A stretch of DNA of 64,000 nt from Catajapyx aquilonaris (Eukaryota). This document shows positions 728 to 47,275 of this stretch, in pieces. Positions within the stretch are counted from its first letter, which is position 1. Every line of letters begins with the position of its first letter. The position numbers and the translations under genes are program-made. Location: the NCBI GenBank assembly GCA_000934665.2, contig KZ537983.1:1-64000 (forward strand), read 5' to 3'. The notes under the pieces are model-generated. The model searched no databases. It worked only from the letters and a program-made list of their open reading frames with translations, and was not told where the DNA came from.

Positions 728-3700
728 TCAGTTGTCTAATTGGCATAGCAAGGCTACTCCCCTCTTGATCCAGTGCTGCACTGGCACATCAGTAGGCAGG
801 AGGAGAGGAAGGACATAGTTGGTGGAGTGGCCTGTGGTGGACAGAGTGCCCTTCCTCTCTGAGGTTTTATACAGGGGTGATTTGTACCTGGTTCCTTCAA
901 GTATCTCGACCTTCTTCTTTGGCACCAGCCTGATTACTGGCACTGCATCCCACAACAACTTGGGGAACTGCTCAGCTAGGACAGACCTGCATGCAAAGGA
1001 AGTACAGTCAGTGTGACCAGCATTTCATATTTTGTTAAGTTTGCAGGTGTGTCAAGATGCATTGTAAGCGCTCGTACAGTACAAGACAAAATGAATAAGG
1101 GCCTACATAAGTTAATTCTACAGTAATGAGTATGTATAGGGAAATTGGAAAATAGGTAAATTCTCATTGATAGTTTTTACAGTACAAGATATACTTTGTC
1201 ATAATCAAAGCCAGAGAGAGTAGTCACTTATTTAGACAGGGTACATTGGAGTATGAAATTTTCAGTGCCCGACAGAATGCCTCAGAGCCAGCACCGGATT
1301 TTATCCAGTGCTGCTCAGAGCAACTCTGGAGCACTAGCCAAGGTGTACCCTGCAGCACCCAAGTGACTACCCTCTCATGGACCTCGTATTCACTGATCGA
1401 ATATCCTGTGATGTCTCGTGAAGTTTAGCGAATGGAATATTTGCTCACTTCTCTCTGTTCCATCTGGCTCCATCAAGGTAGAGTCCAAAGATGTAGACCC
1501 CATCTTCTGGGGGCTCAGCAAAATGGTCTTTCTCTGTGACAATAAAGTCATACCCCAGGAGGTCAATGGGAATGACATACTTCCGGGAGAAGTTCTGCAT
1601 TGCTCCAGTGAGGAAGGCCTGAGTGAAAAAGAACCCAGACACCCAGAAGACAGAAGGCTTCCCCACGTCATACCACTTCTGCAGGAAGGCTAGTCGTTCC
1701 AAGAAGTCAGCTATGTAGCTGCCTAGGGGCTTAAGGCTGGGGTAGGAAACTTTGGCCCAAATTGCTGGCATCTTGGACACCAAGAGGGAGGCAGCCAGAT
1801 TTTCCAGATCCACTGACATCACCACAACTCCCTTGATGGCCTTCTGCAGATTCTGAAGGCTACCCCGTATCATGGCTAGGAGGCGATTATAACGTTCCAT
1901 TTCCTGCACCAGCACTGTGTTCATTGACTCACTGTACGTAACTGGATACTTTTGGAGAGCCACCTCCAGATCATAGTTATCTGGTAGCTGGGAACAAAAA
2001 ATAAGCCTGTTAAATTTCCACATCTTCTATATCGATCAACCCTACTTCAAGCATCCAGATCAATAATAATCAAGATTTTCACCTTGCCAAGTACGTCCTG
2101 TGCAATGTCATATAGCATTGCATCTGCCTGCCCAGAAGGCCCTTTCCCAGATGATCCCTGTGTCAGAAGGGCTGAATCGCAGAGGACCCTGGTCTCTTGC
2201 ATCTCTCTGCTGATATCCACATTGTCATGCATCCCAAACACCTCAGGCATTTGACTTATAGGTAGGTCCTGGAAGGGAGGGGGGAGGCAAGGAAAGGGGG
2301 AAATGGTATTAGGAAAATAAGGGTGTGGATAAGGAAAAGGAAACACTGGAAGGGAGGAATAGAGAGCGTTTCGGGAAGCAGACAAAAATGCCTCGCCTTC
2401 CATTTCACCCAGGCGTATGGCTGCATTTGGGTGAAGGAAAAGTTCTTCCACAGGTGTTGTTTGCTCAATGGGAAGCCGATACTGTTGTTGTCAAGCATGT
2501 TGCAGAAATGTGAGCAGTAAATTTCATTATATCACCAAACCAGTAAGGTACTGCCTTATGCTACTACAATGAATAACTGGCCATATAGTCACTGGCCACC
2601 GTAGTCATTTTGAATGCACCAAACATTACCTTAATGTAGGTGATGTAGTCCTCATAAGCAGTCTTATTGGGCACATAATAGACCCCAGATGGAGACAGCT
2701 GGTACTTGGGCGTGGTGACCACATCTGGGTTATAGAAGTCAGCTAGGATGGTCATGAGTGTGCGGCGATCCCAATCATCCGTCACCCTCCCACCATAGTT
2801 GCACTCCCCAGTCAGGTATGATATGGCCTCATATGGAACATCATCATACTCATTGATGAACATCTGTGAATGTTTGAATTACCAATAAATTCATATAATC
2901 AAACCACTGCACTGTCCAAGTAGGTCTTATGGCATTTATCATCACATATGCCTTGATATTCATTTGATTGCAATTACAATGCACAAATGTTGCATAAAAG
3001 AACTTGCCTGCAATTGCTGCATAGATATATGCAGGTCTGACTCATTGAAGCCATAAGCAATGTTCCATCCTAAAGGCCCAAACTTTCTTCTTTCCTGAAC
3101 GAGGGCATGGAAGAAACAAAGTCCAAAGAGCAGCTTACTGAATACCTCTTCCCTGCCAGGACATCCCTTGTAGAATTCGGCTTCATTCATGGGGTTCATC
3201 AGGTATGACTGGAGAAGGTTCTGGCGGAGGCCAGTGGGAGGCTCGTTTGTCATCTTCACGCTGTTCTGAAGCACTGTTACTGGGAACTGGAAGGTACAAG
3301 GTTACTCCCAAATGTGGTCACCACAGACAGGCATGGCTGCTCCTTGGTATAAAATAGCTGACCTTTTCTGAAGGATAGCTGGTAAGCCAGAGGCGGAAGC
3401 TGTTAGCTGTGTTAAAATTGGTCATGGACTCGCATATTTTCTCCAGAGTAGGCAACCACGAGGTGGCCAAATGGCAGTTCTGCAAGCACACCCACGTACC
3501 CTCCTGCTGGGCCTTTTCCATCATGGCTTGCGCTATTGGGCCCTACAAATATATCAAGATTTACTCCAATTCATTGTTAAATATGACAACAAATACGTTC
3601 ATTACAGCACTAGCTAAGTGAATGAACAAAAGTAAGACAAGCAACCACATACTTGTCCTTGCCCAAGGGAGATGGCCTGGAAGTTATCGCCTCCCATATC

Positions 3701-23779: not shown

Positions 23780-26700
23780 ATGGATGATAAGGAAGACATT
23801 CCTCATCCTCAAAACCCTGAAGATGAAGGTGAATCGGAGGAGGAACATTGGTCAGAAGTGTCGCAAGGCGAACTTCAGAAGGAGTTGGCTCGAGCGACGG
23901 GACAAGCCCCAGAGACGGAAGTGGACCTAACGTCAGCAGGGTCGTCAGCAGAGGAGATAGGAGGGTTGCAGGAGCCGACAGAAGGGTTGCAGAAGCCAGA
24001 AGGGTTGAAGGAGCCAGAAGGGTTGCAGGAGCCAGAAGGGTTGCAGGAGCCAGAAGGGTTGCAGGAGCCAGAAGGGTTGCAGGAGCCGGAAGGGTTGAAG
24101 GAGCCGGAAGGGTTGAAGGAGCCGACATCGCAGAAAGGTAGTACACATGCGTCGTATCTGACAATGGAGACAAAAAGCACGCACGGGTCGTTTCGGACAA
24201 TGGATACAAGAAGCATGCCGGAAAGCGTACCAACACAGACATCGATACCAGCAGTGACACCAGGAGTGACAGGTGGTAAAAAAGACAAGAAGGCAGGGGC
24301 AGATAGTGAAGAAGACAAGGAGATAGTGGCAAGTAGTGAAGAAAAGTTGCATGATGTACAGAGGGTGGACAGCTTCGAGCTTATCAGACATACTGAGGAT
24401 ATTAATGAGATGCACCAATCGCTAATTGCTAATCACCTTTTCGACGAATGCATTGTTCATCTCAGACTGCAAGGTGGAGGGATGGTCACCAAAACATGTG
24501 GCATAGGCACAACAGTATGGGAGCTGAGGGATGTTTTGCATCGAACTGTTCTTGTGGAGAATGACACCTTGTTATCGGTGAGTAACACTTTGTACCGGTG
24601 CGATTTATTATTATTAAATGGCTCTCCAAGCATAAAGAAGTGGCTGTGTAATATATTGTTTCAGTTTAAAAAAGGTGGTGACGTCGTGGCAGAGCATCTT
24701 CCCTTAGCAGCACTGACGGAGACGGACGCACTGGTACTGGACGTAGTGAGCTCAAAACCGTCTGATTATCCCATAAGATCGCCATACGATTGCGTCGTAG
24801 TCCAGGCAAATACAGGTACGTAATGTCAATAGCGCATTGTCAATATCCAACAGGTTTGTTTGATATAAGTACGGGATACAACGGTATGTAGGTTAAGATT
24901 TTCACGCACGAGTTGACCTAAACAGGACCACGGGGTCATTAAAAACATGCTCGCGTGACTTCCACATTATTGATCAAACTCATCTCATGGTTTACTACCT
25001 TGGACTTCATTAATTTGGGCCACGAGGAAAGTTCCACCCACTCGCGTGTCCAATACAGCAGAAACGAATCTAGAAAAGTTGTCTATGAATCGACTATTTC
25101 CTGCCGATTTCTTCGCATATACACAATTAACAATAGACGAGTCTATGAATGAGGATAACACCAAATAACACAATATGAATGAGGATGAAACCATTTTCGC
25201 GTTTGGATTTCGATGATGAGTGAAAATATCTACAACAATCAGCAATGACTCGTTTCCTTGGGGAGAAATTCAACAGTTCATTTAATTCCGGGCTTTCCTC
25301 CGCGAACATCGTGGGCCCGTGTCTGGCGTCGCCAAATGGTCGCGTTACGGTGCCGGATGCCCTGAAACACGGCTACTGGCAACCCCTACCCAGAAAACCA
25401 AGAGGCGACGCGACGGGCCTTGTCACTTATCGCACGATACGAGGAAATTTACATCCTCGTAAGAAATAAGATATGGAGAGGAAAAGCGACCCAGTGGATG
25501 GCCAGGATGGTGAGAAGGCGGCCAGTCACCACCAAGAAATTGATACAGTTGAGGGCACCTCTCAGGTAACTGAGCCAGCTGTGATAGGACAACAAGCTAC
25601 TGAGGTAGTCTCCAATGAAGGTGAGGATATCGCTCCTGAAACTGAGAAAGTTGAGGACACCTCACAAGAAACTGAGAAAGTTGAAAACACCTCACAAGAA
25701 ACTGAGAAAGTTGAGGACACATCACAAGAAACTGAGGCAGTTGTGATACGCCAAGCAACTACTGAGGTCATCTCGAGTTACTACAAGAAAGACACTGGGG
25801 ACATACAGAGCGACCAACAAGAAGAGTATGAAGAAACTGACGAGATTCTCACCGTTTTAGAACCACGGAGTCTCGAAGAATCTGGAACTTCAGCTGTGAC
25901 CATCACAGAGGCGACACAGAGCTCCCAACAATCCTCAGAACCACATAAAAGTATTATTATTACCATTATCATCAGTTCATCACTATTACTGTTAGTGAGC
26001 ATTAGAAAATCTACATTATTTAATGTGTGAGGCAAACATATTTCCCAGCGCGTTATAGAATGTTACTGGCGATAAATCAAGCTGCCTTAACCTCCTGAGA
26101 CCCCTGGTACAGTATACTGCACCTTTGTTTTTTCCAGCACCTTCTGACTAACTCAAACGCGTAAAAAAAAAACCAAAGGTGATTGAAAGGTGTACTAGGG
26201 GTCTCAGGAGGTTAATTGAATGAGGTCACAATCATTTTTCTGTAGTTACAAAAATTGTTTGCTTAGTGGTGCCTTCCAACCAAGACAACATTTGTTACAA
26301 GCAATCTTCTTGCACATTGTGAGGACACTGAGGAGGCCTAACAAGCTTTGTTATTCCAGGAAATGTGTATGTCCAAGTGTTGAGGAGCAAATATCCCAAG
26401 CCATATCTTGGTGGATACAGGCACATCCACACTGGTCAAGTGTACCACCATGCATCAGCACAAACAAGCCCATTCCTAAGACAGAGAGGAAAAGGTAATT
26501 CAACCAAGTCCATCTGTAATGTTAGTGATGGTACCAAGGGCTGAAATGTAAAGTTGTGTGATGGCTGTCAACCATATGGCAACAAAATGGTGCTTATTTT
26601 TTTCCAGTATTTCATCGAGATTCGCAGACATACTTTGGAAAAATCACAGCTCAGCAAACAAACCTGGACAATTCAACACAAATGCGCCGCCATGACTATT

Positions 26701-29165: not shown

Positions 29166-31219
29166 AGAAATCTGCTGTGCAAGACGATGAAATTGGCCTG
29201 GTCTTTCTTTACAGGGTTGACAAAGCTGTAAAATGTCTGGAAAACACAGGTGCTGATGGTACAATATAAATATTAAAATACATGGAGTGTTGTCTATTAC
29301 ATAATAGTCAAAATACACACGGTGTTGCAAGTATCAGGGCCATTTTTAGTTACCACTAATAACACCCAAAGTAGTTATTTTTGTGTAGCTTGTAGTGCAC
29401 TGATCCAGGTGCCCAATTATTTCTAGGTGGTTGAATATAGCAGTTTCTACATGCTACACAAATATACAGTTTCTAGCAAAATGCGATAACTAAAAGGACC
29501 CGCATACTTAGAACACCCTGTATTCACATATATCACTACTAATTCATGACTCAAGTCTCCAGTTTCATTTCCATGTTTGGGCTTCCAAGTTCTGAGTTTC
29601 AGACATTTGAAGCACAACCCAGATGAATGGCATTCAGCTTGGCTCCACATGGGCGATGACATCAACAGAGAGCCATGAATCAGTGCTGTCTGGCACGGAC
29701 AATTTCGGCCAGTAGTCGGATTGTTAGTATGAGCTTCCATTTCCTAGAGACATAAGCAGATAACCAGGATTTGGAAACCTAAATTCCCAGTTCTGAATTC
29801 CTTGGCCAAGTTTCAATTTCAGGAAATTTCAGTTGCAAAGCATTTTTTATGTGCAGGAATATTACAAAAAAAACAAAAAAACCTGCCAATAAATATTATC
29901 AATTGCTATATTTTGATTTATGTATCTCATAAATAAGAGTCCAACATCAGGATGTATAAGCAGATTCCAAGGTAAAAGCAAGTCAAGTGTTTGACAACAA
30001 ACTTTAATTTGAAAATCTGAATCATAAAATTCATCACTGTCATTACAGGAGCTTAAGTACAAAACCAAATGCCATGATCAGTTTGATTACAAAACATCAT
30101 TACTTACAAGGCTACCTGACAGTCATCATCAGTCATGCATGTCTGCATGTCCAAGAACAATGTCACTGACTCCTGTGTATACATGGTGACAATAATTCAC
30201 TTGTTCCAAATATAGCAGTGTAACACACGTCAACCTCAACTTTCTGAATAAAACGGAATGACAATAATCCATCTTCTAGTAACATGACAGCAGCGTAATA
30301 TATTTTCCCAACGATAACTTAAAATGATACGTAACGTGGAATGTGGTTTGTAGCTCAGCAGTTCAGCACAATTAGTAAAAATGTCACTAAGTGGGTGGCA
30401 TTAATAGTAACAGTCCAAAACTCTCAGTAGACTTGCAGGTGTGTCCCTATGCCACATCGAAATAGCCCACTAGCAACACACCATAAATAATTCTGCCACC
30501 TTGGAAAACACCAGCATTTTCTACACGCAGGCCAATAGTATGGTTGCTGTCACTGGCAGACACTTTCCTAAATATCTCCGCCACTTACATGGGAATCCAT
30601 GTTTCACTACATTACTTGACCCTGACTTGACAGTGTTCCAAATGCCAACAGTTTGTAGTAGAAAATGCACCCATTTTTATATGACAGATTACCTTGTGGT
30701 GCAGTTCCTTTAAGTGTTTTACTATGCTTTGTGAATGTGACTTTGAACAGAACCTGTGTGTGTGTGTGAATGTTCAGTGCACTAATCCAACTGCTGAAGT
30801 CAAATGCTACTTTCATTGGGGCTTGGTAAGGCAAGAAAGAAAGAAAAAACTGTCACTCTCTTTGGCTCTAAGATTCAGCATCCGATTTTCATGTCTGAAG
30901 TACCGTACATGCATTATTAATACGCTATCACACCCTGCAATTTTTTGGTCTTGTCAATATCTTCACAAATGGAGATATGCAATTTCTTGCTAATGATAAT
31001 AATGGAATGTGGAATAGTGGACCACAAAGGCTGGGAATCGGAATCAATGCAAAACATAAACATTGGCATATGTTCACAGATTACATCAATACTTCTGGAG
31101 ATGGAGAGTGTAAAGCCAGTGTAAATTTAGTACAGAACCTGTTTGTAGCACAAATAGGATTCAGCAGAAGCTTATTCTTACATAATGTTTGCTTGGTCCC
31201 AGTGGAGCATTTCCATATA

Positions 31220-31390
31220 CAGTAGACTCCAGATATAACAGCTTTGGGTATAACAGTCTCTCGGGTACAGCCGACTCGAAAGGCTGGTACTGCCATAACT
31301 CCATATATGGCCTGTGTATTTGGCTATAACAGACCTCGGTTGTAGCAGACTGATTTCCATGGTCCCTTGCAGTCCGTTATACCTGGATTC
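31220..31390. mobile_element. pogo/Tigger-type MITE, right end eroded
   Basis: TA|CAGTAGACTCCAGATATAAC ... GTTATACCTGGATTC, with internal TATAAC repeats. Confidence 0.55.
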
Positions 31391-33160
31391 TGAGGAATGA
31401 TTCAAGTAACTTTTTTCCCCCCAGAACGTGGTTGCACCAAAGCCAGGTTTCATATCATGTGACAAAATATGCCACCATAACAATTCCCTGCGCTGGTCCA
31501 AAATACTGCCCACTGTTCTGATCACAGACACCATGAAGAGTTGATATTGGTAATCCAAAATAATCTTCAAACTGGCCAAAATATAATCAGATTTTTTTTT
31601 TCAATAAATGATTCCTATTTCAAATAAAATTAATATTCCTCTTGCATTTAGCTAAAATATATATTCATTTCTACTTTTAAAAATTATTCTATCATGTACT
31701 TTTTGTGCCATGTAAGTGGCTTTTAACCCAATCTTTGGTGTGAATTCTTGCCTTACCAACTGTTTTACAGTCCCAAGGGTCACTGGGGTGGGGGAAAGGA
31801 AATACTCTCTTTCCAAAGATTCTGGCAGAGACAAAAAAGTGTGATACTTAGCTTCTATTTGGTTCTGGTGGCAAACTGGAATTATAGTGGCATGAATTCA
31901 TAAGTGGAATAATCGGGCAATGGTGCAACCCACCTTTCTTGTGTGCTAATTCTTCCCACTCTAGAAGCCAGAATCATTTGGGAAGAAAGATGTTCTAAAT
32001 AAAAACATAACTGTACAGCCCTGATCGCAAGCGAAACAAATCTGTAAATTTGCTGCGTGCAACAATATTGCCCATGTGGCCAACAGCCACCGCCAACAAG
32101 CAACTGTTTGCAACATATATCTAAGAAATAGGATGGCCTTTTCTGCTGCAACATTGAAATCACTTCCCTCTTCACTCCCAAACTCCAAGTTTTGCTGATG
32201 AGGAGGGTGGCTTGCATAGCATGATATTCTGTCTTAGTCACACACAGCACATTTCTTTGACTTCACATGAGACATGTTGCATGGAACTTTGTTTCGTGTG
32301 TGACCAGGGTGTAAGAAAATAAAAAAGCAGTAAAGGCATATCACAATAAATGTCAACACTGATCACAACTGATCATCCTAAGTGTTTCTGATAATAAAGA
32401 GAAAGCTCAGCAAACTCATCCTCAGATAAAGCATAGTTGTTGAGCAAATTATCTGTGTATACATACTCACTAAACGCCACCATTTCTCTTGATTTTTCAA
32501 CATATTGCTAAGACACAGCCATTGAAATGTTACACAGGTCACCCTAAATTAAATCATTTGTACAACCATAATAAGACCAACGTTCAAAACTCACTCTTCA
32601 GTCACTTGTGTAGTAGGGTGAGCATTATGTCTTAAGCTCAGTGTTGGATAATGTCCAACTAGGGTTGGGTTGTCTCACTGACAATAATTTTAAGCGAGGC
32701 TGTTACCAATAACATTTGAAATCTAAGTGAAATTTAGTTTGAGATCCACAACAGAGAAATCTTGATTTGACAATTAACTTTCTCAGAGTTCAAATAGCTG
32801 CAGAAAGCATTAGGAGCATTTTAAAATCTTGATGTAGTAAATGGAAAAGAAGATGGGAAATCTTTTCAGGTATCAAATATTCCACTAAAATTAATATTAA
32901 TGGAGTTAAAATTATGCGAATAATTGGTTTCCCATTGCATTGCACCATTTTAAGGGTTGCCATACTCGTACTGTGAATTATCATTTATTTTTAAGAAGCA
33001 TTACTTTTCATAAACATTACGCAACTTTAAAAAATTGGGCAGTTTCTGACAATGCAAGATATCTGATAAATATCGTGGGCACACAATAGAAAACCACTTA
33101 GACCAATTTTGTCAGTTTTGAGTTATTTACATCACTAACAGTAAGTAGCGTTTTTCAAAG

Positions 33161-33505
33161 GGAGGCGGAGTGGTGCTGCGGTAACGCACGTGGCCACGGA
33201 TGTTAAGGTCCCGGGTTCGATCCCAGCCCGAGGTTCCCCCCCTCATCTCATGCAGAGTTGGGCTATCTCTGGCTTCCTCTCGGGTGGAAATTTCCGCCAG
33301 ACTAATCCACCTGGGGGAGTTCACAAAATGACCAAGCAACTACATTGCACTTGCACTTTGCACATCCCCTCCTACCTACCCTAATTGTGGACCAACTAAA
33401 TAATTGTGAATTATACACATGGTTCCAAACATGGTGACATGGTGGTATTTCCACCCCCCTAGGAGGACCTTTCGGCCTTAGCACCGGTATTTTTTTTTTT
33501 TTTGG
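33161..33505 (+). mobile_element. tRNA-derived SINE (head resembles tRNA-Arg(ACG))
   Basis: Pol III A box TGGTGCTGCGGTAA and B box GGTTCGATCCC. TAACGC..TGGCCACGGAT..AAGGTCCCGGGTTCGA aligns to tRNA-Arg(ACG), but the stems do not close. A ~270-bp body ends in poly(T) next to an N. Confidence 0.7.
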
Positions 33506-33511
33506 GGNAAG

Positions 33512-33514
<3 letters not shown>

Positions 33515-33547
<33 letters not shown>
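33515..33547. repeat. (AG)n microsatellite
   Basis: Direct reading; adjacent to an ambiguous base. Confidence 0.95.
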
Positions 33548-33551
<4 letters not shown>

Positions 33552-33595
33552 AAAAAAATAACGGGAGCAAATCAAGTTGCAATTTTCCAGTTATA

Positions 33596-33661
33596 TTGCT
33601 GGTCAAGTCCAATTTGTCCGAAGTTTTGAAACTGTAGGACAAATTGGACTTGAGCCAGCAA
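33596..33661. repeat. Short fold-back palindrome (possible MITE remnant)
   Basis: TTGCTGG-TCAAGTCCAATTTGTCC ... GGACAAATTGGACTTGA-GCCAGCAA. Confidence 0.7.
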
Positions 33662-34057
33662 GCCAGGATTTTTTGTCTTCACTAGCATGCAAGCAAGTAT
33701 AAGGTCAAATCTTTAACTTTGAATATCTCCAAACTTTTTTTTTTTACTTAACGATTTTCTCTTGAATGCCCATGATATACTTTCTCCAATGCTCCTAACC
33801 TTTCTGTTGCCATATGAATATGCAAAACCATTATTTTCATATCCAGATTTCTCAGGTGGAAATCTAATGAGAAAACACTGCCAGTGAGTTTCACGTTTTT
33901 TCCCATCATATGAAAAAGAACACCCTCACTATAAATTAATGTCACTGGAGCTGACAACAATCCTGGAAGGTATCTTTTTCATTATTAGCTGTGACTCAGG
34001 ATATGCTTGGAGTTTTGACAGTTTTTTAAGATCAACTGGCCTTTCCCTCACTTGCAT

Positions 34058-37000
34058 TTAATCACCCATCAAGTTCAATGTGTAAATTGACTTTTTGTCA
34101 GGCACTTCACCTGCCTTTTTCTTCTCACTATTCTCATCAATCTCAATAGTTGCTTCAAGACTGTTCCCGCCACTCTCTTCTTCCGCCAGTGGTGCTTGGT
34201 CTCCAAACAAATTTATGTCATGTATCTTACGAGCGAATGACCTATCAGCATTTTCGTCCTGCACCTCTCTTTCCTGACTGCACTCACCCAATGACACAGC
34301 ATCCTTTTGAGCAGCATCCGACTCACCACCCTCATCACTTTCAGAAGTTTTATTTGTATCCACCTGTCCCGGACCTTCATCCTCGTCACTCCACATTGAT
34401 CCTGTAATGGATGCAATTTCCTCTTCTGACTTCATTCTCCTCAATATGTCCCTAAGGCGCGTCCATGACACCTCTAACTGACGTCCGTGTTCGTATGCCA
34501 TCAAACTGCTCCCAGGCATGTTCTGCAGGTTCAGGTTAAACACACTGAGTCTTCCAACCTAGGGAAACAATATTTTAATTACTTCATAAGGGTAAGAACA
34601 GTAAGAAAGGTGGCAAGCTAACCTTGTGAATCCTGGATAGCATACTGTTGAACTGCTGCGGAAGCTTAAACCGTGGCTTGTACTTCACATCCTTGGGTAA
34701 ATCTTGAGCAGTACAATACGGGAATATGACACACATAATGTCAAAGTTCTTGCTACTGCGATTTGCTATTGAGTCACGGAGCATAGTTAGAGCAATTTTG
34801 TGCAGTTTCCTGTACACTGCATCATGGACTTCTGGCAGCCGAGGTGATGCAACAACTATCACTGCATCAACCACATCCATAGCATGAATAAACCAGCTAT
34901 GAGGATCCTATTTTCATGGCAAAAGAACAATATTGAAATATTAAATTTCCAGTGTTGATATATTATTAAATTGCATACTTTGCCAGTCTTCGGAAGATCA
35001 TCATCCGCCAGAAACACATCAACCAAGCAGTTGGCCACCAAATGCTCCTTCAATTTCCTCACACACTCTAAGTGCTTGTCATGGGACACTCTGTACACAA
35101 GGAGTACTTTCTTCCTCCCTTTACTCGCCAGGTGTGAATTTGCTGAAGTGCAGAAGTATTCTTTAAACATTCACAGTGAAGAGCTTCTTAAGTGCCACAA
35201 ATGTCCAATGAAAACATCTCGCAATAGGGCAGGAATAATGCGTAACAATGCAAGAATTGAGTGCTATGTAGGATGTGCCCATGCATTACATAGAGAAGTC
35301 AGTATCTCTTGAATAATGGGCAAGTCCTTAATCTATTCCAAAACCATAATCTTACAATGTATAATTTTATGCAAAGTGGAGTAGCTGTCACAGGCTGTAT
35401 ACCATACTCTTTTAAGGGTTCATTATAACTGTTTAAACCTAAAAGTCCTCCCTTTGAGTTAATTTTTGGGTGTGGATTGTTGACGATGGTTGCTGCATGC
35501 AGCCCGTAATGAAATTTTGACATCTATGTTTACTCCCTCTTTTGTGGGTCAAATCATGCTCTTTGGGTAGAAGAGATCAGGCCACCAATGGCTGAGGGCA
35601 AAGAGCGTTAAGGAATTTTCTGCATTTTTGAAGGGCATCGACCCTTTTCAAGCCTGTCCCCAGAAAAAGCCTCAAAATTAGAATTTGAATGCCACACCTG
35701 TCAGTCTCTTAATATTCTATAAACTCTCACTATTGCACATTGAAACGAAAAATAATTCCAGAGTGTATGATAGGGCAGGTTCCTATTAATGTATCCTGCC
35801 AATATGAATGATGCATTTTGGTCAAAACTCCAGATTTTGCAGATATCTCAATCAGACATTTCAAACTTCATCGTAAGTGCCATTCAGGGAGAAAAAAAAT
35901 TAGTCACCAAATTTCCGGTGCCCTGCATACCAGAAAGAGAAACTGAGGTCACTCCAAACAGAAACAAGTGGGAAGTAAAGGGCTTTCACAATAGCCTTGC
36001 TATCAACCAACCCACTTCCCTGTTCATTTATCCTCTTATTGTTATCTGGGAGTACTGTGACATTTCCAAGTTCTAGAAGTGTTATTATATTCCCTCCATA
36101 TCAGCTGAAAATTCCAGCAGGAAAAATCACTGAGAGCCAATTCAACCTCACTCCATTGTGATATCAAAAAACAACACCACCACCACCACCATCAGGGCAT
36201 TTCCCTATAAGGGGCAGTCAGTTGTTGCTGTGATATCAACCAGAAAAATTAATTAGGTATCGATTCATTTTACATGGTTCATGCCAATAGCTCATGTTTA
36301 TTTACTAGGGGTCAGTGTGTTCTGAGTGATGCTCCCTGATGGGCTTTGTCTCAATTAAAGTGTGGGTTGCAGACTGGTCACAGCTATATTTCCTGCGAAA
36401 ATTTTAAGCTGTGCAGACCATGTTCTCATTGGTTTTAATTGAAGACACATAGGACTCACCTCTTTTGCCAATACACATTCCCACAACCCCTCCCATGATG
36501 ATAGCACTGACCACAATCAGGGCAACAGTAATGGCCATGTAGCTCGATTCACTGCTGTCATGCAGTGTCAGAAGGGCAGCATATGAGCGACACTTTCCAA
36601 CCTTGCATTCCTCTGAGATCATCTCCACATAACCCTGGAAGATTCCTTTCAGTGCAGATGGGTGTGGCTTCTTTGGGTAGAGAAGATCAGGCTCTTGGTC
36701 TTGCTCGGTTACATTCTGCATGTGCAATATCTCGCCTGTGGTGTTATCCTTGAGGAATACCCAGTACTCCTTGATTCCAAATTTTTTGGGGGCCTTTTGA
36801 AATGTCAGCTTGATCTGATCAGCACGTGACACATCCCAGTACATAAACACAGTCCAGGTGCTTGCATTTCCAATCCTACGTTCATCTGCAATAAAATTTA
36901 GGTGATCAGCATATTAATTACCGTACTGAAATTTCACCTAGGTAACATTCTTACCTATATTATACGGATCAGGCATTGTGAATAAGTATTCCTTCCTGAC

Positions 37001-37848
37001 TTTCAAGTCAGTCTCAAAGAATTCTATATGCACATTGCAAATCTCATTTCTTTTCCCAAATACTACATTGCGCCAAGGGCAATTAAAATAAGGGATGGTG
37101 GAAACATCAAATTCTTTTGCGATTCGGAATCGGCGGCATATAGTGACATTGGCACATTTCTGTTGTATACGCATCACTACATCTGAAATAGAACATGTGC
37201 TTGTGGTCATTTTCTTTACATATTATACTGTTGTCAAGTCATGCTCTTACTGTGCCACTTGCTTCCTGGAATAGTGACATTAATTAGAGAATATGTTTTT
37301 ATCCCAAATTTGTTATATGCACTGGCATAAAGTGTTGGTACCACGCCTTCAGGTGCAGCCATCACATATGAATGTTTCATGTCTACGCAATCTGGGAAAG
37401 AAATGAAACAAAAATTACGTGACCATCTCGTCAACAATCATTGGGCAATACACTTTTTGAATAAATGCACACCTGTATTTGTAGTAGTATTTATGAACTC
37501 CACAACGCAATCCTTATCTGTCACGTCCGGCACAAATGCTGAGAGCTGAAAACACAATACCTTCCATAACTTATGCACCTGAATTGCTAAACATGATGAA
37601 ACAAAGCATGGCCTGTCTATGCAAGGCACAAGTCTGATGGTGGCAATAGGTCCTTTTGTGGGTCGTACCTGGTGGGAGCATGAGACGGTCTTGTTATTGG
37701 AGCAGACCTTGAACTGGACCTCATGGGTGTTGGTGGGGGTTGGAATCAGAGAGCCTCGGACCTCTCTCTGCCCCCAGCCGGACATGAGCAGCGGCAGAAG
37801 GAGGATGCAGAGGGTGCCAGGAGGCACTGCTCTTCCCTGGGGGCCCAT
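34058..37848 (-). CDS. Interleukin-17 receptor-like type I membrane protein with cytoplasmic SEFIR domain (8 coding exons)
   Basis: Signal peptide (TLCILLLPLLMSGWG); Cys-containing beta-rich ectodomain; TM AITVALIVVSAIIMGGVVGMCI. The spliced cytoplasmic part KKVLLVYRVSHDKHLECVRKLKEHLVANCLVDVFL...DPHSW...VDAVIVVASP...MCVIFPY...DLP...RFKLPQQFNSMLSRIH follows the SEFIR box pattern, then EHGRQL and an acidic tail. Confidence 0.8.
36168..36228 (-). mobile_element. Very short 3' stub of the same RTE-like family as 6321-6490
   Basis: 11-bp direct repeat TGTGATATCAA at 36157-36167 and 36229-36239; (CAA/CAC)n tail; CATTTCCCTATAAGGGGCAGTCAG versus CATTTCCCTATGAGGGGTAGTCAG in the first copy. Confidence 0.75.
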
Positions 37849-38594: not shown

Positions 38595-39563
38595 ATGGAC
38601 GAGTATTTACAACGTACGGTCAAGTGGTCATTGCAGTGTAGCTATCACTACTCACCTTAGCATGTACTGAACGCCAACAGTACAATTTGTGACTTTGTTA
38701 TCACACCATCCATACTACCGTGGTCAACCGTGGTCCATACTCTCATTTCAGCCATGTTGCAATCATTCCCACTCCACCAAGCAGCTCGCCAAGGACAAGT
38801 TTCTGTGATGGAGGACCTTCTCCGTCGCGGCTATAATGTCAATGGGATGGAGTACGACCGTGTGACACCTCTCCATGAGGCATGCCTGGCAGGGCAACTT
38901 GAATCAGTGTGCTTCCTGGTTCGGAGCGGTGCTGAAGTCAACTTTGCCAACATCGACAGTTCCACCCCGCTTTGTGATGCTTGTGCTGGTGGACATGCAC
39001 ACTGTGTTCGCTACCTCCTTGAAAACGGTGCCCTGGTCAATCCACCATTTGTACTCAGCACTCCTTTGCACGAGGCAGCACTGAGAGGAAATGGTGAATG
39101 CATCCAACTCCTCATTGAATCTGGAGCGCTACTCGAGGCACGTGACTGCCATGTTGGGACTCCATTACACGCTGCATGTTCCAGGTACTATCCAGACCAC
39201 ACTTGTGTTGAGGAATTGCTCAAAGCAGGTGCTGATGTTGACGCTCCACAAGTGCATCGACGGCCCCTACATTGTGCAGCATCATCTGGAGACAAGGCAC
39301 TCAAGGCAGTGGAGTTGTTATTGGTACATGGAGCCAACTGGACACTACTAGACAATCAAGGGCGAAGGGCCAAAGACAGAGCTGAGATTGGGAGTGAGGT
39401 TTATCACTTGCTGGACCAGTGGGAACACAACCCCAGGCCGTTACGCCTCCTGGCATGTTGGGTAATACGAAAGAGAGTGGGACCAACAAAGTTGCCTGCT
39501 AAGCTGCACAGGTTGAAACTCCCACCATTGATGGCACAATATGTGCAGTCCCCAACGTTGTAA
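38595..39563 (+). CDS. Ankyrin repeat and SOCS box protein, ASB13-like
   Basis: A 19-nt first exon (38595-38613) splices in phase to 38752. Six ankyrin repeats (TPLHEAC, IDSSTPLCDAC, RDCHVGTPLHAAC, as in ASB13) and a C-terminal SOCS box PRPLRLLACWVIRKRV...LKLPPLMAQYV. Confidence 0.88.
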
Positions 39564-39626
39564 CTCACCCAATCCTATTTGGAATAAACACTCATTAAAA
39601 GCGTTCATTTGGCCTCGTTTTCAGAC

Positions 39627-39660: not shown

Positions 39661-40945
39661 CTTTTTTCGTTTTCACCAAACACTCATGCNNNCCCCCCCC
39701 CCCCCCCCTCCACGTCACGTTACCTGTTCTTCCTAAATAAATCAATAACACTTACGTATGTCAGCAAAAGGATATATTTTTATTACAATGTCAGTGCATT
39801 TCAGTCCATAACTTTTCAGATTGCAGCTTAAACATTTGTTTAGATGACAGAAGAAGCATGGAATTGAAAATTCCACCCAATTACGGTACTAGACTTCCTC
39901 ATCATGATGTTTTTTAATGTCAAGTAATACGGTTTATCATCATTCTAATATAGCACAGTGTTTAAGGCAATTATCAGAAACCAACACGTTTTGTAACAAG
40001 CATTGGTTGTCAGGAACACATGACCATGATGTGAAATTGTAGCAAACCCAAGCTACCAGGTAGGATTAGATGAGCAACAGCAGCCCCGTCCCTTTAGCTG
40101 CTCTAAATTTGGAGCAGCCTAATGGGCAGAATCAATATCTTTTGGCCCATGTGTTTGCATAGAGTTGCACAGCCAGTAATTGAGTCTGAGTACTTTCCCC
40201 TCCACCCACTATCACCTCTTCTCCAACCTGTCCCTTTCCCCATCTTACACATGAGCAGCATTGACGTCAGTCATCAGGATCCGACAACTGGTGCAGGCCG
40301 ATTGATCCTTCATCCCGCCCAAAGACTGGCAGATCCTTAAAACTAAGACTAGGCCTGATACTAAAAAATTCCTATCTGCAGACTGCTTTATGGCAACTGG
40401 GTCCTTCTGCCTCACAATCATGGATGTGACCTCCAACATATTTGATAAGAATAGCTTTTAGTCTTGGTGATGTAAAAATTTGGGTGAATAAAAATCAACA
40501 TTTGGAACCCAAATATTTGAGATTCATCAATTTCACAGCCCCCAATTCAGTTCCTACACAAACATTGCCCCATTGCTCATGTTTGTCCCCAGGTATAGTT
40601 CTAGCAACATGGCAACACCTGGGCCATGGCCATATTCACCCACTCTTCATCTTCCACTGTGACACAAGTAGAAAGGATTGCAGAAAAATAAAATGCAACT
40701 TTTTCAGTTACTTGCACTGCACCACAGCTAGATATCACTATTCCATAATTATCATGTGCGTTGAGGTTTTCTGTAACTCCGACATAATAAGGCAGACATT
40801 CAGAGATATACTCGTAATCGCTTGCCAGGTGCAACCCCTCTCACGGCTTATGTGTCACTTCATAAATTGTGTTGTTGTAGGATAAATCTTACATCGGTGC
40901 ATGAATGGAGATTCCCAAATGGCAACATCTGCGTCAACGCAGATG

Positions 40946-43396
40946 CTAGCGGAGAAGGATCTGCTGGGCAACATATCTGGGAAGCCCTAATGTGTGCACC
41001 TTTTTCTCAAACTCCCCAATGCCCAGGGCCCGACGTACTGCCAGGATGCTGAGAAATTGCAGGCGCCTCGGCCCTGCCTGCTCCAACTCTGTAAGGTACT
41101 CGTATACCTTCCCATCATGGCTTGGGCAGACATCCTTGGGTCTAACACTGCCATCAGGCTGGCTAAAAACATTTGCCCCATACTTGACGAGGCATTGTGT
41201 GACCTCCAAGTGCTCACCCTTAACCGCTTCATGTAAGGGAGTGCAGCCTTCGTAGACAGGATTAGGGGCGGCTCCTTCCCACAGGAGGGCTTCGACACAT
41301 CGCAGATGAGCATTGCGGGAAGCTGCATGCAGAGGGGTACCTGACCCCACCTTGCTGGCATTAACTTGTGCATCGTTATCAATCAGTGTCTTGACAACTT
41401 CAATGTGGCCTGTTATAAGTTGAGCAATCATTAAATTTTATGACTAATTGCATGGTACCCCATGTAATATTGTGATGCAAGGGCAAGCAGTTTTCATCCA
41501 GATTAATCTTAATATTTTTAGTATTAAATTTTTTGGGCATTACCTCCAATCTGACATAACAAGGACACCACAACAGGCAAGTTCACCTTCAGTAGCAGCC
41601 TCATGCAAAGGAGTTGGTAACCAGGAAAATCGGTTGTTCACTTCAGCACCACACTCTAGCAGGTAATTCACAACGGATAGATGTCCCCTCCTAGATGCAT
41701 GTGCAAGAGGAGATGGGCCTCCATGCTCGTCAACTGTGTTCACCTTCCCGTAAAAAAATAATCAACTGTCAGTGAAGCTAGTTTGAGATAGTTATGATTG
41801 AGCCTTACTAATTCCATATTATCGCTTCTCGGCTCAATGAGCTAAGATCAAATGTGTAGTACTAATTCCATATTTACGTACATAAGACAAGATTTCTTTC
41901 AAGGCATGGATCATGATTATTTATCCTGCAGGTAAAGCAAGTTTATGAATATTTTGTTGTGTGTGGTGATGGCAGAAAAATTTGAAGCAACAATGGATTT
42001 TGCCAAACACAAGAGTTGGAAAGTAGCCAAGAATTCCCCCACTCTCTGGCTCCAAGCCCACATTTCTCACCTATTCTCCTTCATTACTCCCAGCAATGTA
42101 ATCTGGTAAACTGAATAACACAAACACATTTTGAAGGAATGGCATTCTTCCATATATGTTCCTGCCACAGTAATATGCCAAGCTGAATAGTTTGAATCTA
42201 GCAAATATCTCACTCGTTGCTTAATAATAATTTAGCGATTGTTGCAATTTTCATTTTAAGATAATTCCTGGATAAATATCCAGTTAATCATTGAGTGACA
42301 GTTTTTTTTTGCCATCCATACACTAAAAACTGAACTCGGCATAACAAATCCATGCAGATTGTACTTGTCATAAGTTGCTGGAGAGGTTTTGTCAACAATT
42401 AATAACAAGCGCAATTTGGCCAATTTGTTTTATGTCATTCAAGCCGCTTACGTGTGAGCAATTTGTTGCAGTGATTACGCCACCAAGCCGTAATAATAGT
42501 GGCAACCATATATTTTCACCCCAAACAATCATATTGGTCAAATAGCTCACCTGTAAACATGGCTTTAAGGGGGCGCATGAGTAAAAATAAGGTAGGCGCA
42601 TTTTAGAGGGAATTTTATTTTTTGTGGCGAAACGGACGGTTAATCGGAAAAATCACGCCGAAGGTGCCCTGCGGAAAGCTCGCATTGTTACCGATTGTTA
42701 CCGTATTTTTTTACTAATGCGCCCCCTTAAGCGGGGTTGCACTGGCTCCCGGAAAATTGGTCTGGCCAAAGAAGAGCCAAGATAGTTTGTTATCCATTGT
42801 TGACAGAATTGTTGACAATAATGAATAACAAGCTAACTGGTCTCTTCTTCAGCCATACAAATTTTCCGGGAGCCAGTGCAACCCAGCCTTAGAGCTTGCT
42901 ACCCTCCGTATTCAATTCCTGTCCCCCATAAAAGGCCTATTACCCACCATGGCACCATTTCTCACGAGGAACTCCACGACATCCAGCTTCCCCGACTCGC
43001 AGGCCTCTTGCAAAACAGCAATCTTTGCGCACGGGTCAAAGTAGTTGACGGACACCCCCCTTGCCACCAGCCTCTTGACCTTCCGCAGATCTCCCTCCCT
43101 GGCGGCCTGCAGGATCTTCCACCCATCCAGCGCTGCAACAGAGCAAGCATTAATCGACCCAAAGTGCAAACCACAACCACAGCGTTAGTACTAGGGGCCT
43201 TGGCTAGATCCCGGTGGGTGGTGAACTTGGCCCAAAGCGCTGTCATATGCAGGTATGGCTCAGTGGCCTCCTGGCCCAGTCGCAGGTCGGGCAGGTCGTC
43301 CAGCACTGGCACCTGGTACCTGTCGTCGATCAGATGCTGTCGCCTCTTCTCCGGCCAAGGGTCGTCATCCCAGCAGCTGCTTCCACCGTCTGCCAT
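40946..43396 (-). CDS. Ankyrin repeat and SOCS box protein (4 coding exons)
   Basis: Exons 43396-43192, 43132-42948, 41743-41587 and 41409-40946 join in frame. Ankyrin motifs (AAREGDL, LQEACESG, TPLHEAA, TPLHAAS); SOCS box PRRLQFLSILAVRRALG...LGLPRYVAQQIL. Confidence 0.85.
41821..41861 (+). pseudogene. 3'-truncated U2 snRNA retropseudogene
   Basis: ATCGCTTCTCGGCTCAATGAGCTAAGATCAAATGTGTAGTA corresponds to U2 nt 1 to ~40, flanked by the perfect 15-bp direct repeat TACTAATTCCATATT (41806-41820 and 41860-41874). Confidence 0.9.
42569..42726. mobile_element. Kolobok-type MITE (TTAA target, RR...YY termini)
   Basis: TTAA|GGGGGCGCATGAGTAAAAA ... TTTTTACTAATGCGCCCCC|TTAA. Confidence 0.75.
42730..42888. 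mobile_element. PIF/Harbinger-type fold-back MITE
   Basis: TTA|AGCGGGGTTGCACTGGCTCCCGGAAAATT ... AATTTTCCGGGAGCCAGTGCAACCCAGCC|TTA; almost the whole element is self-complementary. Confidence 0.8.
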
Positions 43397-44688
43397 GGCC
43401 GAGTGTCGCGTGGGAAGTGGCGACGACGCATCCCCAAAGGCACTGCTGATACCCCCATCCCCATGCCAATTCAGCAGTGCCTTTCGCTATGCACCACCTT
43501 AAGGGCGCCACTTTTCAACTATGTGTGTCTAGCTAGCTTGCCAAGGGTTTTATTTTAAGCCCCGGTTTTTCCATTCGCCCGGTCGTTGGCAGGCACCCAC
43601 CACCACTGAGCTTAATAGATGGTTGGCGCACAGGTCACTGACCACCCGCTCCCTGGATCGATCGTCGCTCGTCACCCCCTCGTCACCCAGCAGCTCCCCC
43701 ACCCCTTCAGCTCTAAAAAAGAGTCTATGGCTATGTCTTCCTGCAGCACTGTTATTCGGTCTCGTCACGCCTGCCTTCCAAAGTGGCTTGTCTCGCAATC
43801 GGGCTCGTCTCATGCAACCTGCATGCTACGGCTGCAGGGAGGCCTCCCTACAGGACGAGTAACCAGCAAGTGCACAGGAGGAGACGCAAGTAAGAGAGGG
43901 GGTTATTGCGACAGTGCGTTTGGTGGGGTTGGCATGGTGCCAGGTAGGATGTGCTCAATTGCATAGTTCACCGTCAGGGTAATTTTAATCAATGTGGTAG
44001 TACGCATTGTACGGTCGTGTTAAGGGTGTAATGAAACTGTGTTTTGGGCGGAGATATTAGGTTTTGTGCCTCTCTAGGCGGGTAGCGAGGACCTCCTCAT
44101 TATCCGCTGGGAACAGCCAGGATGATGATATGATGACTTTTAGTGGTGAGATTTACCCGAGCGTGCCAACCAATGACGTTGCTATCCGTGGCTTTTAAAA
44201 TATAAATTTCTTCACTAATCTAGGTTCCAGAATGTTCTAGCCTATTTTATTGATACCTATAAATAAAAAGCGGAGCAACTACCTGATTATTATTTCATGA
44301 ACCATGATCAATACTTCTGAGGATCAGGTCAAAAACATTGAAGCAAGGTTAACAGCCATCAAGTGCATGCAGCAAGTTGCGTGTAAATAATGGAGGTTAT
44401 AAAGTAGTGTAATTACGCCTAATGGTAGTGGCTAGCCAGAGAAATTACCATTTAGCTAGTACAGGACTAGTATGGTCTGTGTTGTGTGTATACGGTTACA
44501 AACTACAGTCAAAAGCTCAACCACAATCTGATCAAAATTAATATTAGTGTGGTAAAAATATATATTATGCAAGGGTGTTTTTCTGCCCAAGTTGACAATC
44601 TAAGACAAGGGAAAGTTAGACAAAGTTACACATGAAAACATATCCTGCATGTCTTCATTGTACTGAATATATGTGTCTTGATTCTAGA

Positions 44689-46409
44689 ATGAGCCTGTCA
44701 CCAAGTGAAAAGTCCCAGAAGGAGCGGGTATGGGAATGGCTCCTGCAGCGGTGGGGTGACATGCGCTCCCTCCGCCTGCCGCCAGGACTTTTCCCACCTG
44801 CCTGGGCCTACACCACTTGGGCGCCTGTGTCCTTCGCAGCAGCTCCAAGCACCTTGGATGATGTGTTCAGAAGCGAAGGCAGTGGCAACGAAGAAGTAGG
44901 GGCGCGGAGTAGTGGAATGAGCCTGATGTACCTCATGCGTGCTGCCAAGACAGGCCGACTCAGCCAGGTGGACCAAGTGTTCAGGAGGCGATTTGGCACC
45001 TTCTGGAAACCTCGGTGGAGCCAGAATCAAAGGAGCGTCAATGGTAGCAGCAGGGTCAACAGAAGAGACGAATTTGGCGGGACACCTCTCATGGCAGCCT
45101 GCGTGATGGGGGTGGCTGAAGCAGTCCGTTTGCTCCTGCAGCATGGTGCACAGGTGGATGCAGAGGACAACGATGGGTACACGCCTCTGTGGTGTGCCGC
45201 TTTTCTTGGGGAGGTAGCATGCCTGCAAATTCTGGTGCAGTTTGGAGCTGTGATCAACCAGGACTGCGGACCCAGCTCACCACTGCATGCAGCAGTTTGT
45301 TCTGGTCAGTGGTTCGCAAAACACAAATTGAATTTATGAACTTTTGTTACGGCACAGTATCCACAAACTAACCTCACACTGATCTTGTCTTTCATAATGT
45401 TACTTGTAAAACACTATGAAAAAATGTACAATTGGTAACTTATGTAGTGAATACATGACCCCACAGGTAACGTCCAGTGTGTGCGACTCCTGCTAAGAGC
45501 TGGTGCCAATGTCGACTCAACCCACAACACGCACCTCTCTAGAACTCCACTACATGCAGCTTGCTCCAGCCAACTACTGCAACATGTGGGCTACTATGAA
45601 GGACTGTTCCTATCACCCCAGAAGATCCAAGCAGCCTTTGACATAATACAAATACTGCTCAATGCAGGTACTGCTACACTTAATATATGTGAATAACAAT
45701 CTCTCAGCCTTGAAGAGCCTCCAATCCACTGACAAGAGTTGTGGTTCATGGACGGGGTCTAATGACTGAATACATGATCAATTAGTAAATCCACATCCTA
45801 TGTGAATAACAAGCATGAACCACTTGCTCTAGATTTACTGTCAATCATGCAGTCAGCCTGAAATGAAATGTTACAGACACTGTGTAATGATCGCATTGGT
45901 ATGAGGCTCCATTTGTAACAAAATGCTCTTTAACAACAATGCAATGCCTTTGTTGGCAGGTGCAAAGGTGAATGCAACTGACAGAGATGGCAACACTCCC
46001 CTGCACTGCCTCATGCAGCACATGAGCTCGGTCCTCCTCATGGAAGGGATTCTGCTCTTGGTTTCCCACGGTGCTAATTGCAGCCTACAAAACAACCATG
46101 GATGCACTCCACGGTTAATACGGAAGGTAACAATTATATCGGCTACACTCGGTGTCGCTTTGAAAGTGGTGGTAACACGTCTACTTCCAGTATTGCTTGT
46201 CGCAGCGCCTGTCTCGCTACCTGCAGCACCTGGAAGAGAATTGGCCCCTGCTCCCACTTCAGTTCCTGTGTTACTTGGCCATTCGAAAGGCATTGGGACC
46301 TCGAGATTTGGAATCCAAAGCGGCCTCCCTACAACTGCCTCGCAAGCTGCAGAAAGGAGTCCTGCAGCCGCTGCAAATATTTGCCCACGATGGGATCCAG
46401 CTCATCTGA
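44689..46409 (+). CDS. Ankyrin repeat and SOCS box protein (4 coding exons visible; start uncertain)
   Basis: Exons to 45304, 45467-45667, 45960-46126 and 46191-46409. Ankyrin motifs GGTPLMAAC, GYTPLWCAA, SPLHAA, RTPLHAAC, GNTPLHC; SOCS box PLQFLCYLAIRKALG...LQLPRKLQKGVL. Confidence 0.8.
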
Positions 46410-46594: not shown

Positions 46595-47275
46595 TCAGTC
46601 ACTGCTATCCTCCACTTCCTCGATTAATTTAGTCCTCTTTGTAGCGCTACACTCAGTTTCCTCATCTTCACTTGAAGTGTCACTCTCTTCATCGCTAACA
46701 GCTTCGTCTTCCTCGCTCTCATTCTGGTCATCTTCAAAGAGGGCCAAGTTCTGCGGAATAAAGCTAGCATTAGGAGTGGTGCTCTTGGAGTGGCTGCCCA
46801 TAAGTTCCTTACCATCTCCACGTACGGCTCTGATGAACTGTCCACATGCTCGATATTGACCCTGTCCTCCCCTCCTTCCTCCTTCATCTCCTCCATCAAC
46901 TTCTTGTTGGCATCTTCCATCTGCGGCAAGAACGACTTGACTCTATCCAGAATCGAGTTGGCTTCCACCTTGTAGGTGCTGTTTCCGCCAGACTTCCTAC
47001 TTTGGCACAGCAGTCGCCACACGGCTGCATCTCGTGCTGTACAATGCAATAAGTACATAAACAGCTGTAATTTTTTGACATATTTCAGGTAATGCTGTCA
47101 AAGATGCAGCCTTTTGAGTCAAGCAGTGTATGACACAATCGTGGACAAAATTAACCTCAATCTATTAAGTATCTATCTGCATCTCGTCCCAACCCACAAC
47201 CTGCTCTCTCCAGACATGGGAAAAGGTAGAAAAGGAGACTCGAACTTTACCACGTGAGGCGTCTTTCTCCGCCAT
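46595..47275 (-). CDS. NOPCHAP1: NOP protein chaperone 1 / C12orf45-like (DUF4598)
   Basis: Three exons. SILDRVKSFLPQMEDANKKL...VNIEHVD...YVEM|NLALFE followed by an acidic tail ending KLIEEV matches the family pattern. Confidence 0.75.

Follow-up and report, generated by a model that had tools for sequence, protein, structure and literature searches.

Five gene families, from DNAH12 to NOPCHAP1, within 47 kb of the Catajapyx aquilonaris genome: a candidate case of shared chromosomal ancestry followed by local compaction

We analysed a stretch of 64,000 nucleotides from Catajapyx aquilonaris (GenBank assembly GCA_000934665.2, contig KZ537983.1, positions 1 to 64,000 of the forward strand), hereafter the window, in which members of five gene families (DNAH12, IQUB, IL-17 receptors, ASB and NOPCHAP1) lie next to one another. 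The window consists of intron-bearing animal DNA with a G+C content of about 43%. A sequence-only reading had listed consecutive DNAH12-like, IQUB, IL-17R, ASB13-like and NOPCHAP1 genes at positions 728-47275, and had proposed that they preserve an ancient bilaterian neighbourhood that vertebrates later split. Stop-to-stop open reading frames (ORFs) of at least 60 residues were searched against Pfam, comprising 76 minus-strand ORFs of positions 1-24660, and 101 plus-strand and 99 minus-strand ORFs of positions 23244-63794. Pfam matches and translations established that all five families are present, and the proposed span fits, the stop codon of the dynein gene occupying 728-730. The list needed a single amendment: it contained one ASB13-like gene, which is indeed present, but the window harbors three ASB genes. 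The order within 728-47413 is a dynein heavy chain (minus strand), IQUB (plus), a SEFIR/IL-17-receptor-like gene (minus), three short ASB genes, and NOPCHAP1 (minus), as follows.

728-23350, minus strand: gene with many exons assigned as the orthologue of DNAH12, the heavy chain of inner-arm dynein a (Pfam, tblastn, PDB phmmer, trees).
23351-23779, no strand: stretch between DNAH12 and IQUB, a putative bidirectional promoter, in which a CCAAT box (position 23531) is followed by a 13-mer with weak X-box resemblance (23542-23554).
23780-29165, plus strand: IQUB, the radial-spoke-1 base protein FAP253/CFAP253, with confident exons at 26806-28679 (Pfam and PDB matches).
34058-37845, minus strand: IL-17-receptor-like gene with a predicted signal peptide, an Ig_ILCR1-like ectodomain, a transmembrane segment and a SEFIR domain (Pfam, translations, insect alignments).
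38757-39560, plus strand: ASB-a, a single-exon gene of 268 residues assigned as an ASB13 orthologue, with six ankyrin repeats and a SOCS box (Pfam).
43124-40949, minus strand: ASB-b, a divergent short ASB with exon ORFs at 42912-43184, 41540-41761 and 40946-41437 (Pfam ankyrin match).
About 44686-46409, plus strand: ASB-d, a divergent ASB with an N-terminal extension and four exon ORFs (Pfam ankyrin match; SOCS box, 27.1 bits).
46598-47097, minus strand: NOPCHAP1 (C12orf45 homologue), with at least two exons (PF15370 and translations).

Dynein heavy-chain families of Pfam (E<=0.01) match 26 of the 76 minus-strand ORFs. The domains are colinear from the N- to the C-terminus, with DHC_N2 (17322-14761), AAA1 to AAA6 including the stalk and microtubule-binding domain, and Dynein_C (2026-728), and make up a complete motor. 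Weak colinear tblastn matches to full-length DNAH12 proteins from abalone, sea cucumber and a marsupial extend the tail to 22648, and 23 chained tblastn high-scoring segment pairs span 2805 of the 3937 residues of a termite DNAH12. The start codon is likely that at 23350-23348, given its ACCATGG context and a GTAAGT donor 33 codons further on. We compared two exons with proteins of known structure using phmmer against the PDB. The 396-residue exon scored highest against DNAH12 (370/362 bits), followed by DNAH7 (310/307) and DNAH3 (289-295), and the 193-residue exon gave the same ranking (276/273, 264/259 and 229/228 bits, respectively).

Two quick phylogenetic trees, both computed without bootstrap, gave the same assignment. 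The first, a single-exon IQ-TREE analysis of 28 rows by 359 columns (two rows whose BLAST matches spanned at least 600 residues being left out), places the window gene inside the DNAH12 clade with a support of 99 in the Shimodaira-Hasegawa-like approximate likelihood ratio test (SH-aLRT). The second uses an approximate multi-exon protein for the window gene (35 rows by 1451 columns) and separates DNAH12, DNAH7 and DNAH3 into clades that each have an SH-aLRT of 100. In this tree the DNAH12 subtree parallels animal phylogeny, and the window gene falls within Arthropoda (100) and Pancrustacea (99), where it forms a trichotomy with Amphibalanus, a barnacle, and the ten sampled insects, which group together (100). 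The sequence-only reading had called the dynein DNAH12-like and had held that a grouping with DNAH7 or DNAH3 would refute its proposal. Since both trees place the gene in the DNAH12 clade (99 and 100), no such grouping is found, and sequence comparison confirms the gene as the orthologue of DNAH12 and not of DNAH7 or DNAH3. The insect members of this clade are named inconsistently in public records, as 'DNAH7', 'DNAH12' or 'dynein heavy chain at 62B'. Two members are found in some insects: in the 35-row tree Bacillus rossius is represented by two sister copies, both from one chromosome, and Pyrocoelia has two copies that are adjacent by their locus tags (RI129_006394/5).

The neighboring gene on the plus strand was identified as IQUB from its central and C-terminal exons. 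The IQUB-like domain PF25805 is found in 27461-27953 (57 and 71 bits), and the ORF at 26806-27159 gives a weak match to the IQ motif PF00612 (18.2 bits against a cutoff of 20.3, E 0.002). In the PDB search, four exons are colinear with residues 467-530, 526-587, 588-679 and 667-731 of human IQUB, and the IQUB exons match chains named IQUB, FAP253 and CFAP253 from human and Chlamydomonas. The first ORF (23774-24823, 349 codons, with an ATG at 23780) and the last ORF (28767-29165) were assigned to the gene by position and strand only. The former, the putative site of the N-terminal ubiquitin-like domain, has no match in the PDB, nor in Pfam even at E<=10, and its single-sequence structure model is of low confidence (mean predicted local distance difference test score of 41.6), displaying only a beta-beta-alpha-beta pattern. 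Two in-frame tandem repeats on the plus strand fall in the region placed by position at the IQUB N-terminus: an 18-bp unit repeated 8.8 times at 23962-24123, within this same ORF, and a 30-bp unit repeated 3.5 times at 25638-25743. Coding tandem repeats number only three in the window.

DNAH12 faces the probable first exon of IQUB head-to-head, with about 430 bp between the deduced start codons; because the first exons are themselves deduced, the exact spacing is an estimate. The 13-mer at 23542-23554 was noticed post hoc and carries no indication of RFX binding, and three patterns for a strict X-box matched nowhere in the window. According to Walton et al. 2023, DNAH12 forms human inner dynein arm a (IDAa), which docks at the base of radial spoke 1 (RS1). 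By analogy, the DNAH12 and IQUB products of Catajapyx would be neighbors at the RS1 base. The gene pair is thereby reminiscent of the RS1 base/IDAa module of the 96-nm repeat (PDB 8j07, 9fqr, 7jtk, 8glv), since the head-to-head genes of the window encode the IDAa heavy chain and IQUB/FAP253. It differs from the module in that the link within the window is one of genomic adjacency in one species.

These observations raise the possibility that DNAH12 and IQUB alone constitute an old, constrained divergent pair with a shared cilia-specific promoter, and that the SEFIR, ASB and NOPCHAP1 genes are unrelated neighbors. Such an explanation is attractive in view of the head-to-head arrangement over a short distance, the attachment of the DNAH12 arm at the RS1 base, the match of the IQUB exons to PDB chains IQUB and FAP253, and the location of the two human genes in presumably ohnologous segments, which a pair broken up by reciprocal loss would leave behind, but the 349-codon ORF that starts at 23780 is not tied to IQUB by any PDB or Pfam match or by its poor model, and the window lacks a strict X-box. 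We regard it as unlikely on balance. A shared cilia promoter is a reasonable candidate for the mechanism that may hold the two genes together.

The third gene of the series encodes a SEFIR domain within one exon (34584-35170, 24.8 bits against a cutoff of 23). Upstream, Ig_ILCR1 matches 36404-36913 at 25.7 bits, under the cutoff of 27, and the translations show an N-terminus resembling a signal peptide as well as a stretch that would span the membrane. Insect SEFIR receptors align to the window gene across both the ectodomain and the SEFIR domain. An exhaustive HMMER search with the SEFIR exon returned only 20 relatives at E<=1e-3, the best of them with an E of 4e-9 and 37% identity. Nineteen of the 20 were looked up, and all 16 for which an organism is named are from insects, with no vertebrate among them. 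They are annotated as uncharacterized or SEFIR-domain proteins and come from crickets, cockroaches, a termite, stick insects, a louse, a mayfly, a katydid, leafhoppers and three Hymenoptera; the Pfam SEFIR domain is present in 14 of the 20. A phmmer search of the PDB with the same exon gave no meaningful match. The Atlas neighbors of one insect relative are arthropod SEFIR, IL17R_fnIII and Ig_ILCR1 clusters. On this domain architecture, designation of the gene as IL-17-receptor-like is justified.

We also considered whether the gene is the orthologue of IL17RD, and found no support for this identity. The IL17R_D_N family (PF16742) matches no ORF of the gene in Pfam, the named relatives are all from insects, and the chordate IL17RB and IL17RD clusters of the Atlas tie at 0.96 for the insect relative. 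The earlier assignment to the IL-17 receptors is thus borne out by a SEFIR domain that lies behind a transmembrane segment and an ectodomain, while its tie to IL17RD is not. SEFIR receptors were encountered in Orthoptera, Blattodea, Phasmatodea, Psocodea, Ephemeroptera, Hemiptera and Hymenoptera, and the cricket Gryllus bimaculatus has adjacent copies (GLH10112-GLH10114). In the window, the gene is head-to-head with ASB-a, with about 900 bp between the two start codons.

ASB-a is the best defined of the three ASB genes. Among the best 120 matches listed, all ASB-named relatives are ASB13 or ASB13-like, with the exception of one Bulinus ASB9, and the closest among the matches listed are from decapods (45-48% identity) and from the horseshoe crab Tachypleus (47%). 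Decapods, horseshoe crab, molluscs and vertebrates are represented among these 120 matches and insects are not; ASB13 may have been lost or have strongly diverged in insects. In a small unrooted tree, in which ASB13 was the sole named ASB subfamily included, ASB-a lies within the ASB13 split with an SH-aLRT of 95, and ASB-b and ASB-d, whose branches are very long (about 3 changes per site), are excluded from it. Both the relatives and the tree identify ASB-a, at the level of sequence, as an orthologue of ASB13. ASB-b is colinear with ASB-a from end to end, at 31-50% identity, and has a SOCS-like C-terminus seen by alignment only. ASB-d is colinear with ASB-a over its whole length, and an Atlas search with its main exon returned generic ankyrin clusters only. 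ASB14 and ASB15 are long ASB proteins of about 590 residues with ten or more ankyrin repeats. None of the window genes matches this type, all three being colinear with the 268-residue ASB-a, in agreement with the earlier description of the ASB genes as short and ASB13-type rather than ASB14/15-type. Our literature search found no phylogeny of the ASB family.

NOPCHAP1 closes the series and is tail-to-tail with ASB-d. The ORF at 46624-47097 matches PF15370 with 39 bits against a cutoff of 27 (E 1.2e-9), the match covering only profile positions 2-46 of 110, within one exon. An extra 5' exon is possible near 47165-47413.

The proposal of an ancient neighbourhood was built on the human gene map, in which the relevant genes occupy segments at 3p14.3, 7q31.3, 10p15 and 12q23. 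We take these four segments to be linked by ohnologue pairs, and the segments of human DNAH12 (3p14.3) and IQUB (7q31.3) are presumably ohnologous to each other. Gene lists taken from published papers reproduce three of the groupings. ASB14, APPL1, DNAH12, HESX1 and PDE12 fall within one 1.06-Mb goat interval (PMC12686773), and HESX1, APPL1, ASB14 and DNAH12 form one human candidate region (PMC7519921). Likewise, APPL1, HESX1, IL17RD, ARHGEF3 and TASOR share one sheep interval (PMC11591336), and il17rd, appl1, hesx1 and arhgef3 one salmon interval (PMC8102513). SLC13A1 is flanked by CADPS2, IQUB, NDUFA5 and ASB15 in pig, human and mouse (PMC5614667), and a human 10p15 deletion lists NET1, ASB13, FAM208B, GDI2, PFKFB3 and PRKCQ (PMC6393686). 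The 3p14.3-, 7q31.3- and 10p15-type groupings of this map are therefore found in print, but that of NOPCHAP1 with APPL2 is not: our literature search found no paper that lists C12orf45 with APPL2, ALDH1L2 and SLC41A2.

The window resembles two of these vertebrate clusters. As in the mammalian 3p14.3-type cluster IL17RD-HESX1-APPL1-ASB14-DNAH12, DNAH12 lies a few genes from an ASB and from an IL-17-receptor-family gene. However, the Pfam ORF scans detected no homologues of HESX1, APPL, ARHGEF3/NET1 or TASOR in the 64-kb window. Moreover, the ASB genes of the window are of the ASB13 type and not of the ASB14 type, IQUB intervenes between the dynein and the receptor, and the SEFIR gene is not demonstrably IL17RD. 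The mammalian 7q31.3-type cluster CADPS2-SLC13A1-IQUB-NDUFA5-ASB15 likewise has IQUB a few genes from an ASB, but homologues of NDUFA5, SLC13A and CADPS were not detected in the window and the ASB type differs.

We then asked how the orthologues are placed in other animals. Two proxies were used: a shared contig was deduced from the identical size of the contigs that carry the two proteins, and gene distance was taken from the gap between RefSeq accession numbers. Seven species had both a DNAH12 and an ASB13-like protein. The two genes are co-chromosomal in all three of the chromosome-scale assemblies, as follows.

Tachypleus tridentatus: DNAH12 and ASB13-like on a shared contig of 35,489,417; gap between XP accessions, 464.
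Haliotis cracherodii: shared contig of 70,419,761; gap between XP accessions, 387-389.
Haliotis asinina: shared contig of 66,300,187; gap between XP accessions, 108.

The two genes are on separate scaffolds in H. rubra, Physella acuta and Plakobranchus ocellatus. They are on separate contigs in H. rufescens, a case that was left uninterpreted because its two accessions are from different series. By these measures, DNAH12 and the ASB13-like gene are adjacent in none of the seven species. The three co-chromosomal pairs have close accession numbers, which suggests that the numbering follows position; if so, tens to a few hundred genes separate the two, and they appear linked, perhaps regionally, but not adjacent. 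As for the receptor, a SEFIR homologue and the DNAH12 orthologue share a contig in none of the four insects compared, being carried by separate chromosomes in Bacillus rossius, Periplaneta americana and Polyplax serrata, and by separate scaffolds in Cephus cinctus.

Simakov and colleagues, in 2013 and 2022, and Irimia and colleagues, in 2012, have reportedly described ancestral linkage groups of bilaterians as well as blocks of ancient microsynteny. Measured against these two categories, the co-chromosomal placement of window neighbors in a chelicerate and in molluscs is a signature of chromosome-scale synteny. Ancient microsynteny blocks, on the other hand, call for adjacency in several distant lineages or phyla, and none was seen with our proxies for either of the two pairs compared, DNAH12/ASB13-like and DNAH12/SEFIR. 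A full-text literature search found no published block containing these genes, the supplements of the classic microsynteny papers lying outside its scope.

Taken together, these data lead us to favor, with moderate confidence, a shared ancestral bilaterian chromosome combined with local compaction, the window being an ordinary compact pancrustacean stretch and not a tight conserved micro-block. In this scheme, the five families would descend from one ancestral bilaterian chromosome and would have ended up, or stayed, within 47 kb in the compact genome of this lineage. DNAH12 and IQUB (about 430 bp apart), and the SEFIR gene and ASB13 (about 900 bp apart), would have become or remained head-to-head neighbors in the process. 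The comparison leans towards orthologues that are no closer to each other than genes that merely share an ancestral chromosome, the second outcome named by the sequence-only reading as refuting its proposal, as judged by proxies in few lineages, and a conserved tight bilaterian micro-block is not supported by the outgroups reached.

The original proposal is that such a block, older than the vertebrate duplications, is kept in the window, that vertebrates split it over 3p14.3, 7q31.3, 10p15 and 12q23 by reciprocal loss after two genome duplications, and that molluscs, chelicerates and insects dispersed it independently. Part of this proposal is sustained by the data. The orthology of DNAH12 holds, and the clusters IL17RD-HESX1-APPL1-ASB14-DNAH12, IQUB-NDUFA5-ASB15 and NET1-ASB13-FAM208B are borne out in the mammal and fish gene lists. 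DNAH12 and the ASB13-like gene share a chromosome in all three assemblies at gaps of 108-464, which would be somewhat nearer than a random pair from one chromosome, though not significantly so. The tight block itself fares less well. The SEFIR gene is not tied to IL17RD, having no vertebrate relative, no IL17R_D_N match and an Atlas tie at 0.96; the ASB genes are not of the ASB14/15 type; adjacency is absent from the seven species compared for DNAH12/ASB13 and from the four insects compared for DNAH12/SEFIR; and the ohnologous links among the four human segments are our assumption. We consider this history improbable, to about the same degree as that of an isolated DNAH12/IQUB unit.

At the other extreme, the neighbourhood could be pure coincidence, that is, a lineage-specific juxtaposition whose match to the human map results from flexible matching. 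Human has 18 ASB genes, 5 IL-17 receptors and 3 related dyneins, which leaves room for such matching, all the more so since many windows were read. The ASB match runs through paralogues, ASB13-type here and ASB14/15 in human, the IL-17-receptor-like gene cannot be assigned to one receptor, and none of the three chromosome-scale insect assemblies has the SEFIR gene on the chromosome that carries DNAH12. However, coincidence would hardly account for DNAH12 and the ASB13-like gene being co-chromosomal in both horseshoe crab and abalone. These animals have roughly 13 and 16-18 chromosome pairs, respectively, so that at least this pair of genes reflects old linkage. Of the explanations considered here, coincidence seems to us the least likely.

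Several points nevertheless weigh against shared chromosomal ancestry with local compaction. Mammals have IL17RD, ASB14 and DNAH12 in one small interval and IQUB beside ASB15, which is a striking coincidence under this explanation. If genes were shuffled within a linkage group of several hundred, the same three to four families would rarely come to lie close together in both lineages; this is a rough estimate made without computation, and it is softened by the 18 human ASB genes, the 5 IL-17 receptors and the many windows read. The outgroup comparison is itself limited in several respects. Contig identity and gene distance were both obtained by proxies, the latter on the premise that accession order follows genome position. 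The best ASB13-like matches alone were compared, so that a closer neighbor of DNAH12 might be found among the remaining ASB copies. The comparison covered only DNAH12, ASB13-like and SEFIR genes. Finally, the two abalones do not count as independent samples, and synteny in insects is eroded.

These points leave room for a more specific ancestral state. The bilaterian ancestor might have had a compact neighbourhood in which a divergent DNAH12/IQUB pair had an IL-17-receptor gene, a few clustered ASB genes and NOPCHAP1 on its flanks, and which persists near-intact in Catajapyx. Vertebrates would have spread it by reciprocal loss over four ohnologous segments (DNAH12 with ASB14 and IL17RD; IQUB with ASB15; ASB13; NOPCHAP1), and molluscs, horseshoe crabs and insects would have loosened it independently. 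We view this detailed scenario as rather more doubtful than the general proposal of a block, if a little less so than coincidence.

The remainder of the window contains other genes and a few sequence features. Pfam recognises no ORF in the roughly 4.8 kb (29200-34050) that separate IQUB from the SEFIR gene; a single N is found there at 33508 between simple CT-rich repeats, and NNN is found outside this stretch, at 39690-39692. Searches of the window for tRNA genes and Rfam families gave no match. Just outside the five-gene span, two tandem intronless ORFs of 660 and 663 codons (48817-50799 and 52167-54158, plus strand), each with a Lig_chan match of 49 bits, look like variant ionotropic-receptor genes. 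They are followed by four tandem UDP-glycosyltransferase genes (54675-63468, plus strand) with an identical three-ORF layout, in which a long first exon precedes two short exons that correspond to positions of about 335-413 and 411-498 of the UDPGT profile.

The analysis has two by-products. Arthropod genes that are inconsistently annotated as DNAH7 or DNAH12 can be clearly assigned to DNAH12, and an IL-17-receptor-like SEFIR family extends across many insect orders, where it is annotated only as uncharacterized. On present evidence, the locus is chiefly an illustration of chromosome-scale synteny, a well-known phenomenon. Conserved synteny with reciprocal loss of ohnologues is also well known, and the locus would at most add a new instance. 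If the ancestral block were true, it would show in one clear case how vertebrates lost ohnologues reciprocally once their genomes had duplicated, and an axonemal partnership, that of inner-arm dynein a with the base of radial spoke 1, would be mirrored in the genome by a shared promoter. The most testable lead is the head-to-head pair of DNAH12 and IQUB.

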